The translations under genes and the position numbers were made by a program. A stretch of 64,000 nt of DNA. Origin: Eledone cirrhosa. Lineage: Eukaryota. Position 1 is the stretch's first letter. Each line of letters starts with the position of its first letter. The stretch covers positions 347,076,001 through 347,140,000 of the forward strand of contig OZ024741.1 of NCBI GenBank assembly GCA_964016885.1, in the 5' to 3' direction. Below the pieces are notes generated by a model. It did not search any database and had not been told where the DNA came from. It saw only the letters and a program-made list of their open reading frames with translations. This document shows positions 7,050-64,000 of this stretch, piece by piece.

Positions 7050-7358
7050 TCATTTATGTATTTCTTGTGGAATATTATTTACGTATTTCTTATTTACTTA
7101 TGTGGAATATTACTTATGTGTTTCTTATTTACTTATGTGGAATATTATTTACGTATTTCTTATTTACTTATGTGGAATATTACTTATGTATTTCTTATTT
7201 ACTTATGTGGAATATTTTTCATGTATTTCTTATTTACTTATGTGGAATATTCTTTATGTATTTCTTATTTACTTATGTGGAATATTATTTTTGTATTTCT
7301 TATTTACTTATGTGGAATATTATTTATGTATTTCTTATTTACTTATTTATGTATTTCT
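7050..7358. repeat. 35-bp minisatellite, about 8 copies
   Basis: Unit ~ttatgtggaatattatttatgtatttcttatttac. It explains the repetitive ORFs 6853-7474. Confidence 0.9.
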
Positions 7359-8681: not shown

Positions 8682-9467
<786 letters not shown>

Positions 9468-9782
9468 TTTGACTTAATTATATTATATATATATATACGT
9501 AAAATGTAAACAGAAATAACGGTACAGTATGTGGAAGGAATATATAGGTCACATTTGCCTGTTACCCTTTCAAAATCGATAACAAAGTACCAGTCTAGTA
9601 CTGGGTCGGTTCTTCCGCTATATCTCTTCCTCATTTCCTCTCTCTCACCTTGTATCTTTCTCTAGAAGAAATCTGCTGTACTTAAGTCTGGAGAGGTATG
9701 AGATCTGCAAGGCTTAAAATGTCCAAGAAACACCATATGTCAATACGGGGCTCTTACGAGTCTATCAGGAGTTACAAGCACC

Positions 9783-12806: not shown

Positions 12807-13182
12807 GGATTACAAACGAGAATATATACTGTCAGAACATGTTTATATAAAAGCACCTACGTACGTTTCGCCCGAAAAGGGCTTCTCAAGGGCATAGAAA
12901 ACTACAGAGTGTTCGGTACAGGACCAAGAAGGGGTTTTAAAGTGATACATACATCAAAGTTCATTCTTAGTTCAAACATACACGTTATTGAATAACAACG
13001 TATATGTTTGAACTAAGAATGAACATTGATGTATGTATAACTTTAAAACCCCTTCTGGGTCCTTTACCGAACACTCTGTAGTTTGCTATGCCCTTGAGAA
13101 GCCCTTTTCGGGCGAAACGTACGTAGGTGCTTTTATATTGACATGTTCTGACAGTATATATTCTCCTTTGTAATCCTTTCAT
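12800..13182. repeat. ~190-bp-arm inverted repeat of a pLTR 3' end, each arm with a U3-A8 HHR motif
   Basis: Arms 12800-12990 and 12990-13182 are near-perfect reverse complements. gccc-TTGAGAA-gccc-ttttc-gggc-GAAA-cgtacg-TA-ggtgc at 13090-13130 (+) and 12853-12893 (-). Confidence 0.85.
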
Positions 13183-21951: not shown

Positions 21952-24780
21952 CATTGTAAACAACAGATGGTGGTACTCTCTCAAGAGGGTAGTTAGATTA
22001 GACTCGATGGGTTTTAGTAAAGAATTAGTGTTAGATAGAACTAAAACAGAAAATGAACTGGTAGATAAAGTATAAGAGGCACTTAGGAGTGGCAACGTAG
22101 CCAGTGAGATAGCGACGTGAACGGCCTTGGACCAGTTCTGCGACGCAAAGCATGAATGCTGCGTTGTCAGAAGCAAAATACGTGCTCTGGGAAACGAGGG
22201 AGCCAACGCTGTTAGCTGGGCCCGAGTGACGGAGGCGAAAAGTGGCAACATGTCCACGATTCGGTCTTTGAAAGACCAAGACAAACACGTGATACACGTG
22301 AGCCGAAGCAGATGTGCGCGGCCTTTCAGCGGCACTTCGCTCAGCTGTTCGTGCCGGGCGGGTCGCTGGGAGGGGCTAAGGATTTAGGTCCATACCTCTA
22401 CGGCCTACCGCGACTCTCGGACAGCGAGCCAAGTTTTGCAAAAGGCCAATTTCGTCCACTGAGATAGGGGATGCGCTGAGCCAATGCAGCAAAGGCAAAT
22501 CTCCAGGACTCGACGGTCTACCCTACGAATTTTACGTAGCAATGTCGGACTTGTTCTCCAGTCCCCTGGAAGTTTTCTACTGCAACTGGCAGCAGAACGG
22601 GAAAATTCCCAGTTCTGTGACCAAGGGCGTAGTCACTTCAGTCAGGAGGGACGAGAATCAGGGGATGACATAGGCAACTTCGGGCCCATAACTCTGCTAA
22701 ACACAGAGTTACAGATTTTGGCCAAGGCTTTGGCAAAGAGGCTGGCGCTAGTCGTCGACAACCTGATGGGAGAAGCGCAGACATGATCAATCCCGACCAT
22801 GTCCATACATGACAACCACCACCTCATGCGATACATCATAGAGAGGGTAGGGTGTAAACCCGGCTTCGGTGGGGCCCTGATCAACTTGGATCAGTCTAAG
22901 GCTTTCGATAGGGTTGACCATCGTTACCTGGATGCGGTGCTCGAGGCGGCAGGCTTCGGACCCGTGTTCAGGGGCTGGATTGCTGCAATGCACAGCAGCA
23001 ACATCCGCTCAAGGGTCAAGGTGAACGGCTACCTCACGGAGCCGTTCCATATCACGCGATCCATCTAACAGGGATGCCCTCTCTCCTCCCTTCTGTACGT
23101 ACTGACTCTCGAGCCACAACTGCGGAAGTTGGAGCTATTGCAGGGCATCCCTTTCGAACCGGGACTGCGAAAAGCGGCGTCGGCCTACACCGATGACGTG
23201 ACAGTTATGGTGTCGTGCACCTCGAAAATCGGGGAGGTCGGCACCATAGTGGAGGAATACGAAAAGTTCACAGGAGCGAAGCTGAACCGGCACAAATTCG
23301 TCGGTTTGCAACTCGGAACGTGGAGAGGGAAACCGATGTCCTCCGATGGTGTCATCAGACGCTGGACGGTAAGACCGGTAGAGCTGCTCGGGGTCTGGTT
23401 TGGTCCGGACCTCCAGGTGGAGAAGAACTGGAACGAGGTGACGGCCAAGATGTTTGCGCTCACCCAGAAGTGGGCCGAGTGCAAACTATCCTTGAAAGGT
23501 CGAGCGGAGGTGGCGAACACTTTTATAGCCTCCGTCATCTACTACTGCTTGGCCGTCGTGCCTTGTCCAGCCAAAACGCACTCCAAAATGGAGCGCGCGC
23601 TCTTCCAGTTCATTTGGAAGAAACGGGCTGAGAAAATCTATCTGCTGCCAACACCCTTCAAACGGAGGGCTGGGGATGACGTGGCTGACGTTGCGCAAAC
23701 ACGCGCTCAGGTTGCGGCAACCCACGTATTCTGCACCGGACAACCGGTGTGGGCCCCGTTCGTGAGGCGAGCCTTCCCACGACTCGTCTCGCTGACCGAG
23801 GTGCAGTCCTACGTCAAGCAAATACCGAGGAAAATGGGCGACTAGCACATCGAATGTGCTCAGGCGTTCACAGTCCTCTGCCAAACGGACCCGGCGATCA
23901 GTAGAGACTCCACTCGACATTCTATAGAGGGTTGGTCCGCAGAAAGTGCTACGACGCGCTCGGAGAAACTCTAGGCGTAGAGGAGGACGAACTGGCGGTA
24001 GGACCTTCCGCCCGGGACCAATGGACAACTTCCAAAAGTCCCTGGCCTGGCAGTGCTACCGAGGAGCTCTACCAATTCGAGACAAGCTCTACAGACACGG
24101 GCTCCCGGGCAGGGACCTTTCGAAAAAACCTGTGCGAGATGCGTGCGCGACGAGGAAACCGTCGCGCACGCATTTGTACACTGGGCGTTACCAACCTGTG
24201 GGGCTATGTAGAACGACTATTGTCGCGGGTGGAACCAATCCAGTTGACCACCGAGTCCATTGTTATTATCAAACCGCCACCCCCCCCCCCTTCAAAAACG
24301 AGGGATAGGCGGTTTTCCTATGTGTTATGGCTATGGTGAAAGAGCTTATATGGTGGACGAGATTAAAAGGGCTGAGGTCAGACACTTTCTCTCCGGCGAG
24401 CAGCTGATTCGTTTTTTCAAATATAATTTTGGAAGAAGAATCAGGATGGAGAGAGTGGTACTGTACCCCTGCAAAGTTTATAAAAGGTGGGTGAATGTGG
24501 CAAAGATGGCCCGGGTGGTTGGGCCTTCTCTCTATATAAACCTCTAGGTTGAGGAAAAAGAGGAAGTGAGGAAGGGAGTACTCACTCTTGGTGCTCCTGG
24601 AGATGAGGGTTGTGCATTGTTTCAGGGTGTGTACAACCCCTGTGTAACGCCTCCCCCTTATTGGGGATTTCAATTCTTATTTGTTATTTTATTAATAGTT
24701 TTATTTTCATATACCTGTATATAAACTCCCCATTTGTATTTGTTACATTCTTTTGTGCCCTTGTGGCTAGTCATTTTTTT
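21952..24780 (+). mobile_element. 5'-truncated, decayed L1/Tx1-clade non-LTR retrotransposon (ORF2 RT and C-terminal Zn-binding region)
   Basis: Motifs KSPGLDGLPYEFY, NFGPITLLNTELQILAKALAKRL, LDQSKAFDRVDHRYL, QGCPLS, AYTDDV, LLGVWFG, LSLKGRAEVAN, LAWQCYRGALPIRDKL. Many stops and frameshifts. Confidence 0.88.
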
Positions 24781-25430: not shown

Positions 25431-25944
25431 ATATATATATACATACATATATATATATCTTTAAAGCGTAGAAATATCCGAGACCCCCAGTAGACAACTG
25501 ATAAGGAATCCCCCTCCCCCCGTATTGCTTTCTTCTTATTCTTACTACATTTAAAGCTACCTTAAATAGTAACTACACAGCCTATCCTATTCTCCATATA
25601 TTATATCATGTTTTTGCTGTGAACAGTCTTCCCTCTCCTACCTACCTATTTCGTTACTACCTACTCTTACCCACTTTCTCCCTCTCCCTTTCTCCCTCTC
25701 ACTTTCACACATTCTCTCTCTGCTTGCCACCTCATTGTTTCCATCGCCTGACCTTCTAGTAGTCTTTTTCTCACTAACAACTCGCTGGGGTCAGACGTGT
25801 GTCTTTTATCTCTCGCACACACGCTCTTGAACTTAAGTTATCTCATCGCTGTGGTTTTGGATTTTCTTACCTTAAGTTGCTCGCACATTGCACGGTTTGT
25901 TATTTTTTTCAGCAATAATAATAATAATAATAATAATATGCACA

Positions 25945-26286
25945 AGGTAAGTATATACGTTCAACAATCTGTCAGGAAGGTATACGTTGCTGACGATAGC
26001 TAATAAGCTTGAAACTAGTACAGCGTTCCTTTGTCAGTGTTGAACAAACGAGCAACGATGGTTGCTGGACACTACGGCTTAATACAGGATGTTTGTTTAC
26101 AAACACACCGAGCATTATAATAAATGTTCAGTGAATCCATACGTACATATATATATGTGTGCATGTATGTATATATATATACATACTACTGTGCGTCTGT
26201 ATACATATATGTATGTACGTGTACATACTTATTTTTAAGTAACAGCCGTACTAAGAGTGGGAAATGAAATTTCGTTTCATTTTTCC

Positions 26287-26292
<6 letters not shown>
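25945..26292 (+). mobile_element. Diverged solo copy of the 466-bp HHR repeat family
   Basis: Aligns by eye with the reverse complement of the array unit (cgttcaac.atctg.cag, HHR, ttcct.tgtcagtgttgaacaaa, gtttgtttacaaac, actaagagtg.gaaatgaaatttcgttt). Ends in (TA)n. Confidence 0.82.
25984..26026 (+). ncRNA. Type I hammerhead ribozyme (canonical core)
   Basis: acgttg-CTGACGA-t-agct-aata-agct-t-GAAA-c-ta-g-TA-cagcgt. Confidence 0.88.
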
Positions 26293-26333
<41 letters not shown>

Positions 26334-26420
26334 CACACACACATATATATATGTATGTATATATGTACATATATATATATATTTATATATATATATATAC
26401 TGTATATATATATATATTTA

Positions 26421-26498
<78 letters not shown>

Positions 26499-26522
26499 TG
26501 TGTAGATATATATATACATATA

Positions 26523-26575
<53 letters not shown>

Positions 26576-26898
26576 AATATAAATATATGTAAAGTTAATC
26601 AGTATTAATACTTGAAATACTTATGCATAAGTGATGATACAAGTATCCTAACACAAAATAATTTAGAAATTACGCGCAATTTGTAAAATATTTAATGCAA
26701 CGATGCGTTTATATATCGAAGTGTAAAAAGTACTTAAAATCCATTACGTGAAAAATCACTTGATTATTGATACTATGACCTAGTTTCTCACTATAAATAA
26801 CATTACTAGACACAAAACACATATGAATATTGCTTTCTCGTACGTATCCCTCCTTTATCCACCCCATACACACATGAACCTCGCATATATATATATAC

Positions 26899-61126: not shown

Positions 61127-61712
61127 TTAAGAAGAACAGAACGAGTTTCACATTTGGGTTTTACTTGATTAGTCTCAGTTATACACTTTTCATAGATTGG
61201 TGGATCCAGACCTATATTATGATTACCGACCTAATAACTCCAGCCACAATCTTCTCATCAGACACGATACTCACGCAAAGCCATCATCTCATAGAGTGCT
61301 AATATTGGTACCTTTCTCAGTAAACGACGAATCTCCTGATACACCTAATATACATACACATAAACACACACATACACACACACACACATATAAATATATA
61401 TATATATATATAAATTGAAACAAAATGAAAACGAAATTTCATTTCTCACTCTTAGTATGGCACTTACTTAAATGCAAGTATGCATGTATACGTACATACA
61501 TATATGTATACAGACGTACAGTAGCATGCACATATATATATATATATACATATATACATACATATGCATACAGGTACACATACATATATGCACGTATCAG
61601 TTTAGCGGCGCTAACGTCGCTTTGTTCGTTTGTAAACAAACTGAACAGCCTGAATTTATGCCATACGGTGTTAAGGCAACCACGTCACCTTTTTGTTCAA
61701 CACTGACACAGG

Positions 61713-61757
61713 AACGATGTACTAGTTTCAAGCTTGTTAGCTATCATCAGCACCGTT
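61713..61757 (-). ncRNA. Type I hammerhead ribozyme, unit 1
   Basis: aacggtg-CTGATGA-t-agct-aaca-agct-t-GAAA-c-ta-g-TA-catcgtt (7-bp stem I with one G-U). Confidence 0.9.
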
Positions 61758-62178
61758 TACCCATCTGCCAGATAGTTGAACGTTCGAAAGTATATACTTT
61801 CCTTATGAAAATTAACGGCTGAGCAGCCTAATTTGCATATTGAGTGAGTTAAATCGGTCAGGCATACCGAAAACGATAAATTGAAACAAAATGAAAACGA
61901 AATTTCATTTCTCACTCTTAGTATGGCACTTACTTAAATGTAAGTATGCATGTATACGTACATACATATATGTATACAGACGTACAGTAGCATGCACATA
62001 TATATATATATATACATATATACATACATATGCATACAGGTACACATACATATATGCACGTATCAGTTTAGCGGCGCTAACGTCGCTTTGTTCGTTTGTA
62101 AACAAACTGAACAGCCTGAATTTATGCCATACGGTGTTAAGGCAACCACGTCACCTTTTTGTTCAACACTGACACAGG

Positions 62179-62223
62179 AACGATGTACTAGTTTCAAGCT
62201 TGTTAGCTATCATCAGCACCGTT
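62179..62223 (-). ncRNA. Type I hammerhead ribozyme, unit 2
   Basis: Identical to unit 1. Confidence 0.9.
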
Positions 62224-62644
62224 TACCCATCTGCCAGATAGTTGAACGTTCGAAAGTATATACTTTCCTTATGAAAATTAACGGCTGAGCAGCCTAATTT
62301 GCATATTGAGTGAGTTAAATTGGTCAGGCATACCGAAAACGATAAATTGAAACAAAATGAAAACGAAATTTCATTTCTCACTCTTAGTATGGCACTTACT
62401 TAAATGTAAGTATGCATGTATACGTACATACATATATGTATACAGACGTACAGTAGCATGCACATATATATATATATATACATATATACATACATATGCA
62501 TACAGGTACACATACATATATGCACGTATCAGTTTAGCGGCGCTAACGTCGCTTTGTTCGTTTGTAAACAAACTGAACAGCCTGAATTTATGCCATACGG
62601 TGTTAAGGCAACCACGTCACCTTTTTGTTCAACACTGACACAGG

Positions 62645-62689
62645 AACGATGTACTAGTTTCAAGCTTGTTAGCTATCATCAGCACCGTT
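62645..62689 (-). ncRNA. Type I hammerhead ribozyme, unit 3
   Basis: Identical to unit 1. Confidence 0.9.
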
Positions 62690-63110
62690 TACCCATCTGC
62701 CAGACAGTTGAACGTTCGAAAGTATATACTTTCCTTATGAAAATTAACGGCTGAGCAGCCTAATTTGCATATTGAGTGAGTTAAATCGGTCAGGCATACC
62801 GAAAACGATAAATTGAAACAAAATGAAAACGAAATTTCATTTCTCACTCTTAGTATGGCACTTACTTAAATGCAAGTATGCATGTATACGTACATACATA
62901 TATGTATACAGACGTACAGTAGCATGCACATATATATATATATATACATATATACATACATATGCATACAGGTACACATACATATATGCACGTATCAGTT
63001 TAGCGGCGCTAACGTCGCTTTGTTCGTTTGTAAACAAACTGAACAGCCTGAATTTATGCCATACGGTGTTAAGGCAACCACGTCACCTTTTTGTTCAACA
63101 CTGACACAGG

Positions 63111-63155
63111 AACGATGTACTAGTTTTAAGCTTGTTAGCTATCATCAGCACCGTT
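63111..63155 (-). ncRNA. Hammerhead, unit 4, with G12>A core mutation (probably inactive)
   Basis: Plus strand reads tagttttaag instead of tagtttcaag (63127 C>T), so GAAA becomes AAAA. Confidence 0.8.
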
Positions 63156-63576
63156 TACCCATCTGCCAGATAGTTGAACGTTCGAAAGTATATACTTTCC
63201 TTATGAAAATTAACGGCTGAGCAGCCTAATTTGCATATTGAGTGAGTTAAATCGGTCAGGCATACCGAAAACGATAAATTGAAACAAAATGAAAACGAAA
63301 TTTCATTTCTCACTCTTAGTATGGCACTTACTTAAATGCAAGTATGCATGTATACGTACATACATATATGTATACAGACGTACAGTAGCATGCACATATA
63401 TATATATATATACATATATACATACATATGCATACAGGTACACATACATATATGCACGTATCAGTTTAGCGGCGCTAACGTCGCTTTGTTCGTTTGTAAA
63501 CAAACTGAACAGCCTGAATTTATGCCATACGGTGTTAAGGCAACCACGTCACCTTTTTGTTCAACACTGACACAGG

Positions 63577-63621
63577 AACGATGTACTAGTTTCAAGCTTG
63601 TTAGCTATCATCAGCACCGTT
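63577..63621 (-). ncRNA. Type I hammerhead ribozyme, unit 5
   Basis: Identical to unit 1. Confidence 0.9.
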
Positions 63622-64000
63622 TACCCATCTGCCAGATAGTTGAACGTTCGAAAGTATATACTTTCCTTATGAAAATTAACGGCTGAGCAGCCTAATTTGC
63701 ATATTGAGTGAGTTAAATCGGTCAGGCATACCGAAAACGATAAATTGAAACAAAATGAAAACGAAATTTCATTTCTCACTCTTAGTATGGCACTTACTTA
63801 AATGTAAGTATGCATGTATACGTACATACATATATGTATACAGACGTACAGTAGCATGCACATATATATATATATATACATATATACATACATATGCATA
63901 CAGGTACACATACATATATGCACGTATCAGTTTAGCGGCGCTAACGTCGCTTTGTTCGTTTGTAAACAAACTGAACAGCCTGAATTTATGCCATACGGTG

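Follow-up and report, generated by a model that had tools for sequence, protein, structure and literature searches.

Co-varying helices in the hammerhead motifs of a retrozyme-like repeat family of Eledone cirrhosa

The probable retrozyme copy and its relatives in the window

In the 64,000-nt stretch of Eledone cirrhosa DNA analyzed here (the window), the element at 25934–26292 is probably a 5′-truncated copy of a non-LTR retrozyme, whose hammerhead motif combines an invariant core with co-varying helices I and II and is predicted to cleave itself after GUH only when two copies pair via the hexamer ACUAGU. The element and its relatives in the window comprise the following features.

25934–26292, plus strand: subfamily-B retrozyme copy, 359 bp, 5′-truncated, about 0.85 unit (BLAST against rotated units, alignment to the A and C units)
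25977–26031, plus strand: type-I hammerhead block of this copy (sequence, pair counts)
26259–26285, plus strand: predicted 12-bp 3′ hairpin immediately before the fixed 3′ end (fold of 3′ ends, alignment)
26290–26588, no strand: (TA)n microsatellite adjoining the 3′ end of the copy (TRF, period 2, 147.5 copies)
8780–9467, minus strand: subfamily-C copy, 1.47 units of 468 bp, with (TA)n on either side; hammerhead block at 9073–9127, core at 9084–9114
61410–64000, minus strand: subfamily-A tandem array with a 466-bp unit, at least 5.6 copies, running past the end of the window (TRF, 99% matches)
61720–61750, 62186–62216, 62652–62682, 63118–63148 and 63584–63614, minus strand: hammerhead cores of the array (sequence)

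BLAST against rotated units slightly extended the subfamily-B copy, which the sequence-only reading had placed at 25945–26292. Its 3′ limit is the fixed 3′ terminus of its family, and it is most likely the dead, single-armed product of one insertion event. Read on the plus strand, the hammerhead region runs ...AAGG-TAT-ACGTTG-CTGACGA-T-AGCT-AATA-AGCT-T-GAAAC-TA-GTA-CAGCGT-T-CCTT..., that is, a distal helix (AAGG/CCTT) and a UAU/U internal loop enclose stem I (ACGTTG/CAGCGT), CUGACGA (25990–25996), stem II (AGCT/AGCT, loop AATA), and GAAAC-UA-GUA (26011–26020). The succession of stem I 5′ strand, CUGANGA, hairpin II, GAAA, the position of helix III, GUH, and stem I 3′ strand corresponds to the type-I topology with an open helix I. 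The cleavage site of this copy is predicted between positions 26020 and 26021.

The alignment of whole units revealed homology among the three loci, which are copies of a single AT-rich, non-coding repeat family with units of 424–468 bp and a GC content of 0.355–0.382 (36–38%). Subfamily A is represented by the array (466 bp), B by the copy at 25934–26292 and by arrays elsewhere (424 and 430 bp), C and C′ have units of 468 and 466 bp, and D has a unit of 434 bp; the unit periods of other arrays are 424, 430, 434, and 466 bp. Whole-unit identity is 249/426 (0.58) between A and C, 0.76–0.79 between A and B, 0.76 between A and D, and 0.96 between C and C′. The array contains no stop-to-stop open frame of 120 or more amino acids, and its 3′ end at 61410 adjoins (TA)n.

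Three relatives with different but paired stem I sequences had been described from the sequence, and all of them were recovered in the window: aacggtg/catcgtt in A, acgttg/cagcgt in B, and aatattg/caatatt in C. The stem II strings agct/agct (A and B) and gttgt/acaac (C) were confirmed, as was the variation at N7 (U or C) and at H17, which is A or, in subfamily C on the minus strand, U; two copies at a further locus (L063) additionally have C at this position. The core CUGANGA...GAAAC-UA-GUH, which had been called invariant, is present in all three relatives, but the invariance is broken in one of the five array hammerheads of the window, where G12 is replaced by A at position 63127 (core 63118–63148). 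Representatives of A, B, C, C′, and D all carry the conserved core positions (C3 U4 G5 A6 N7 G8 A9, G12 A13 A14, A15.1–U16.1, and an H17 other than G).

A search of the window with the pattern CTGANGA-N6-30-GAAAC-N0-8-GTH returned eight matches, compared with a mean of 0.15 in shuffled sequences (0 of 100 shuffles reached eight). Six of the eight are copies of the family, namely four in the array, one at 9084–9114 on the minus strand, and the one at 25934–26292. The remaining two overlap at 560–590 and lack a stem I complement. Genome-wide (3.0 Gb, 1,796 contigs), the pattern CTGANGA-N6-20-GAAACTAGTH was found 20,753 + 19,686 = 40,439 times, whereas the reversed control pattern gave 9 + 12 = 21 matches.

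In sequencing runs that carry the labels of two other organisms, 0.80 and 0.76 of the sampled A-unit words are present; thus, near-identical copies exist beyond the label of the source organism. Six runs, none listed as RNA, contain this sequence; contigs of four of them provided depth over 61571–61876 and contained neither joints nor molecule ends.

Covariation and selection on the hammerhead fold

The sequence-only reading had ascribed the motif to selection on RNA catalysis instead of chance matches. The comparison of subfamilies A and C, a sample of 51 distinct copies, and the genome-wide counts lend good support to selection on both the fold and the core of the hammerhead. Since paired bases change jointly between the subfamilies, the fold is considered to be under selection.

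Subfamilies A and C were compared inside the 55-nt hammerhead block, from distal helix strand to distal helix strand. Among the 18 pairs, seven changed on both sides, nine were unchanged, and two changed on one side only; one of the one-sided changes breaks a distal pair. All seven double changes from A to C (CG>UA, GC>AU, GU>UA, UU>GC, AU>UA, GC>UA, and CG>GC) result in Watson–Crick pairs in C. Assuming uniform substitution, the chance that all seven would remain canonical is approximately 1.3 × 10^-3, as calculated from the option counts. Only one of the 19 unpaired positions of the block differs, which is the change of H17 from A to U permitted by the consensus, compared with 16 of 26 positions in the flanks (Fisher's test, p = 1.2 × 10^-4 against the flanks and 1.2 × 10^-3 against the unit-wide divergence). 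The comparison of A and B adds a flip of pair 2.3/1.3 from G.U to U.G and a change from U.G to A-U in the distal helix.

For the larger sample, 93 distinct genomic instances from 64 loci were reduced to 56 distinct sequences, 51 of which were kept. Five sequences were left out: microsatellite or foreign sequence cuts three of them short, a fourth has an indel, and the fifth (L045) is unrelated. In the 51 sequences, 87.8% of the cells were paired, compared with 80.0% after shuffling (0 of 500 shuffles reached the observed value) and 32–52% (maximum 51.6%) when the partner strand was slid. The covariation score was 0.238, compared with 0.097 after shuffling (0 of 500) and at most 0.095 with a slid partner, and changes on both sides occurred at eight pairs. 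Because the pattern used to collect these sequences itself requires the core, the invariance of the core within this sample is given by construction; the stems and the comparison between subfamilies are the only data unaffected by this bias.

Two pairs were counted over the whole genome.

Pair 10.2/11.2 (C clade): U-A 5,264 and A-U 2,645; unpaired U.U 3 and A.A 1 (4 versus 7,909)
Pair 2.3/1.3: G.U 13,762 and U.G 7,422; unpaired U.U 243 and G.G 71 (314 versus 21,184)

The mismatched intermediates are mostly scattered single copies and were never amplified. A purine at position 2.5 is found in 198 copies, which are scattered singles as well, and most of them among the 100 matches listed retain the old partner. 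Since these copies are mostly uncompensated, they are attributed to the ordinary decay of dead copies and have no bearing on the master lineages; selection therefore acted on the replicating lineages and not on the inserted copies. The covariation stems from a handful of events at the level of subfamilies, not from thousands of independent ones.

Helix III and deviations from the standard motif

Helices I and II are paired and show compensatory change, with the exception of pairs 10.1–11.1 and 2.7–1.7, which are unpaired in most subfamilies. More than 20,000 copies carry a mismatch at 10.1–11.1, the pair that closes helix II: U.U in subfamilies A and B, C.A in subfamily D. G-C occurs only in C; A or C at position 10.1 was counted in 1,644 motifs. 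The unpaired state of 10.1–11.1 may lower the activity. Pair 2.7–1.7 is U.U in B and D. Minimum-free-energy folds of subfamilies A, B, and C contain helices I and II but mispair bases of the core.

As read from the sequence, helix III consists of A15.1–U16.1 and C15.2–G16.2 around a loop of two nucleotides. Two base pairs and a 2-nt loop do not suffice for hairpin closure. The hexamer ACUAGU is self-complementary (self-duplex −6.8 kcal/mol), so that helix III could form only between two motifs, and the single hammerhead of the copy at 25934–26292 would need a partner RNA. The corresponding hexamer is ACGCGU in a second family with a 311-bp unit and ACCGGU in a third family. In the second family, motifs with an S-S loop were found 9,627 + 9,389 times (approximately 19,016) compared with 69 + 60 in the control. 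The 100 listed matches with S-S loops comprise 97 GC and 3 CG loops, all of them palindromic and none CC or GG. The palindromic nature of the hexamer, which two further families share, points to a dimeric hammerhead.

According to PMC4209133, most metazoan type-I hammerheads have 6 bp in helix I, 4 bp in helix II, and a helix III of 1–2 bp with a small palindromic loop, and act as dimers in tandem repeats. The combination of 1–2 bp and a small palindromic loop is likewise given as that of an active dimeric ribozyme in PMC7229834 and PMC4209133.

None of the copies passes an Rfam gathering threshold. The best family for all three relatives is Hammerhead_HH9 (RF02275, clan CL00010), whose gathering score of 52 is not reached by their 18.5, 21.4 (B), and 37.7 (C) bits. 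The core, helix I, and helix II align to the HH9 model; its 3-bp helix III with a 5-nt loop, however, is deleted in the copies studied here, which is why Rfam calls none of them.

The second family was encountered at C1:1239857–1244284 of genome G000 (L083–L089) and has approximately 19,000 hammerheads genome-wide. It shares the architecture with a GGA-UA bulge and a 14-nt hairpin II with an AAYA loop; its pair 10.1–11.1 is A-U or U.U, and two-armed arrays are frequent. In a third hammerhead-like motif (L009:183, minus strand, and L020:2600, plus strand), helix III is replaced by the quasi-palindrome ACAGACUGU; this motif has an imperfect helix I of about 15 bp, CTGATGA, and a short hairpin II.

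Insertion anatomy and Penelope-like elements

The anatomy of the insertions was surveyed in 88 arms at 64 loci, which are centered on hammerhead hits and hence represent a biased sample. The canonical 3′ terminus of the respective subfamily was reached by 33 arms, and in 29 of these (TA)4 or more followed within 40 nt downstream. The 5′ ends of the arms are spread over every tenth of the unit. Head-to-head (−,+) pairs were found 26 times (52 of the 88 arms) and a tail-to-tail pair once. The 3′ terminus lies just after a hairpin, which is present in A, B, and C with different sequences (fold z-scores −1.2, −2.0, and −3.8, respectively). All three relatives in the window end at the canonical 3′ terminus next to (TA)n, and none has a second arm.

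As a genomic fossil of cleavage, arms starting exactly at the site were sought among the 88, and none was found; the seven arms with a 5′ end at most 25 nt away were inspected. A single arm has its end precisely at H17, and one such case carries no weight. This 43-nt D hammerhead fragment (G000 C1:64633322–64633364, L055) starts in (TA)n and is followed by unrelated, (AAAACT)-like sequence. Between the 5′ end of the C copy and (TA)n, the stretch at 9468–9490, read on the minus strand, is taattaagtcaaag, which matches an internal piece of the C unit in reverse complement. The stretch may be the scar of a template switch or a minimal second arm.

For Penelope-like elements, (TA)n targets and tandem and inverted 5′-truncated copies are described in PMC8557442, and the cleavage of both strands in AT-rich DNA with internal initiation in a stem loop in PMC11167929. 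The insertion footprint of the retrozyme family matches that of these elements. The genome contains 10,596 GIY-YIG (Penelope-like) candidates, and 150 of 150 scored above the cut-off. In 18 GIY-YIG loci (L064–L081, out of more than 10,000 candidates), a regular-expression and BLAST search, which extended at most 900 nt to either side of seven long ORFs, detected neither a canonical hammerhead nor words of the 3′ hairpin. Similarity of these 18 loci to the retrozyme unit did not extend beyond microsatellite-like stretches. Because the 18 sampled loci showed neither a hammerhead nor similarity to the unit, no helper, partner, or ancestor is named here.

Two kilobases upstream of the copy at 25934–26292, a reverse-transcriptase (RVT_1) fragment lies in an open frame at 23069–23845 on the plus strand (27.4 bits against a cut-off of 29.6, E = 3.2 × 10^-6). 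This sub-threshold fragment was the only Pfam result for 10 ORFs of the window.

Proposed propagation and alternative explanations

Based on published retrozymes and Penelope-like elements (PMC7229834, PMC4209133, PMC11167929, and bioRxiv 10.64898/2026.07.22.740005), the following route is proposed. The arrays would be transcribed as multimers, in which adjacent hammerheads would form a double hammerhead and excise a unit-length RNA. This RNA would likely be circularized by a host ligase. A Penelope-like reverse transcriptase/endonuclease would then likely nick AT-rich (TA)n DNA and start copying internally near the 3′ hairpin, and copying that runs around the circle or along the multimer would give rise to arrays of any length. 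We also entertain, as a distinctly speculative extension, that the retrozyme is copied by Penelope-like elements that lack a canonical hammerhead. In that case, the parasite would bring its ribozyme itself instead of inheriting it from the helper, and the palindromic helix III might serve as a switch that cuts multimers (or protein-bound RNA) and spares finished circles.

A different role of the fold is unlikely but deserves consideration, namely that it is selected mainly as a structure recognized or assisted by a Penelope-like reverse transcriptase, or for another role at the RNA level, and that self-cleavage to circles is not key to the spread of the family. The Penelope-like element PAc, as described in PMC11167929, gives this explanation some weight: its hammerhead cleaves only with protein, cleavage is dispensable for insertion in vitro, as mutants of the catalytic bases show normal insertion, and RNA-seq yielded no reads with an end at the site. 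The array ends in the family studied here are likewise set by the 3′ hairpin and the tail and not by the cleavage site, and most copies have U.U or C.A at 10.1–11.1. A mere helix scaffold, however, does not account for the unpaired catalytic nucleotides (CUGANGA, GAAA, and an H17 other than G), which matter for catalysis and are kept across subfamilies that are only 58% identical. The retention of a palindromic helix III in three families fits a double hammerhead, multi-unit arrays need a multimeric or circular template, and circles of retrozymes have been documented in coral, mussel, and axolotl (PMC7229834).

It is very improbable that the family is a neutral satellite, with a relic motif that was merely swept along in recent amplification and whose structure is not under selection. 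Copies within a subfamily are indeed near-identical (99% in the array), and the single copies with a purine at 2.5 decay uncompensated, as such a satellite would. Between the old subfamilies, however, pairing was preserved in all seven double changes while the flanks diverged, and mismatched intermediates of pairs 10.2/11.2 and 2.3/1.3 were never amplified. That the three loci are chance matches to a consensus that is short and does produce unrelated matches (at 560–590 and in locus L045) is refuted by the shuffle counts in the window, the genome-wide control, and the alignment of the three loci over whole units.

Relation to known systems

The family is best assigned to a known class, the animal non-LTR retrozymes with dimer-type type-I hammerheads, and the class, the dimer idea, and the link to Penelope-like elements are already in print. 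As in the metazoan non-LTR retrozymes (Cervera & de la Peña, 2020, PMC7229834), the repeats are short, non-coding, and arranged in tandem, ranging from parts of a unit to long arrays, and each unit carries one type-I hammerhead and has a low GC content; thousands to more than 100,000 copies and co-occurrence with Penelope-like elements are shared features, too. The same source gives retrozyme sizes of 220–245 nt for coral, 350–390 nt for mussel, and 330–350 nt for axolotl, and the unit of 424–468 bp lies at or above the upper end of the overall ranges (RNAs of approximately 170–400 nt, repeats of 150–450 bp). Helix III is short and of the type described there, for amphibians, as requiring a dimer, whereas the invertebrate retrozymes are of the efficient monomeric kind. 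Furthermore, the metazoan retrozymes include documented RNA circles, whereas the family described here is known from DNA sequence.

The dimeric hammerheads of newts and salamanders (Forster et al., 1988, cited in PMC4209133 and PMC7229834) share the type-I topology and the tandem genomic repeats, as well as a helix III of 1–2 bp with a small palindromic loop, by which two motifs must pair. Unlike these satellites, the present family occurs in another animal group and has an unrelated repeat sequence, and its palindrome is ACUAGU (ACGCGU and ACCGGU in the sister families).

The third point of comparison is the hammerheads in the pseudo-LTRs of Penelope-like elements (Cervera & de la Peña, 2014, PMC4209133; PAc, Frangieh et al., 2024, PMC11167929). 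Common traits are the insertion into AT-rich or (TA)n DNA, tandem and inverted 5′-truncated arms, a 3′ end fixed internally beside a stem-loop, and a possible need for a partner or protein. In contrast to Penelope-like elements, the element described here lacks an ORF and is not similar to any of the 18 GIY-YIG loci sampled, and unlike the minimal Penelope-like hammerhead form, it has full helices I and II with loop–bulge features.

A literature search joining hammerhead or retrozyme with cephalopods, which was not exhaustive and did not include supplements, found no printed description of this retrozyme family; PMC8557442 was the only relevant entry among its 12 top rows. The words octopus, cephalopod, and squid are absent from PMC7229834. 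The current understanding is unchanged by this family. It adds a very large invertebrate-style retrozyme family with at least 40,000 motifs and several subfamilies, and it provides a clean natural compensatory series, in which one pair occurs as G.U, U.G, U-A, and A-U and another changed from U-A to A-U with almost no intermediates. A dimer-type helix III is palindromic across three families. The natural variants represent ready-made sets for cleavage assays, including the G12A array copy as a control, and the family offers a system for asking what Penelope-like enzymes recognize.

Further features of the window

The match at 560–590 on the minus strand reads CTGAGGA-A-GGGC-TTAT-GCCC-GAAAC-GTC, with a good hairpin II and no helix I formed by the flanks, and is probably due to chance or belongs to another element. 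At 12905–13078, a near-perfect inverted repeat of 174 nt was scored by the plant miRNA model MIR946 with 57.5 and 55 bits on the two strands, compared with a gathering score of 190; the repeat appears to be a MITE-type hairpin and not a miRNA. A tandem repeat with a 35-bp unit (8 copies, 93% matches) is located at 7066–7346.
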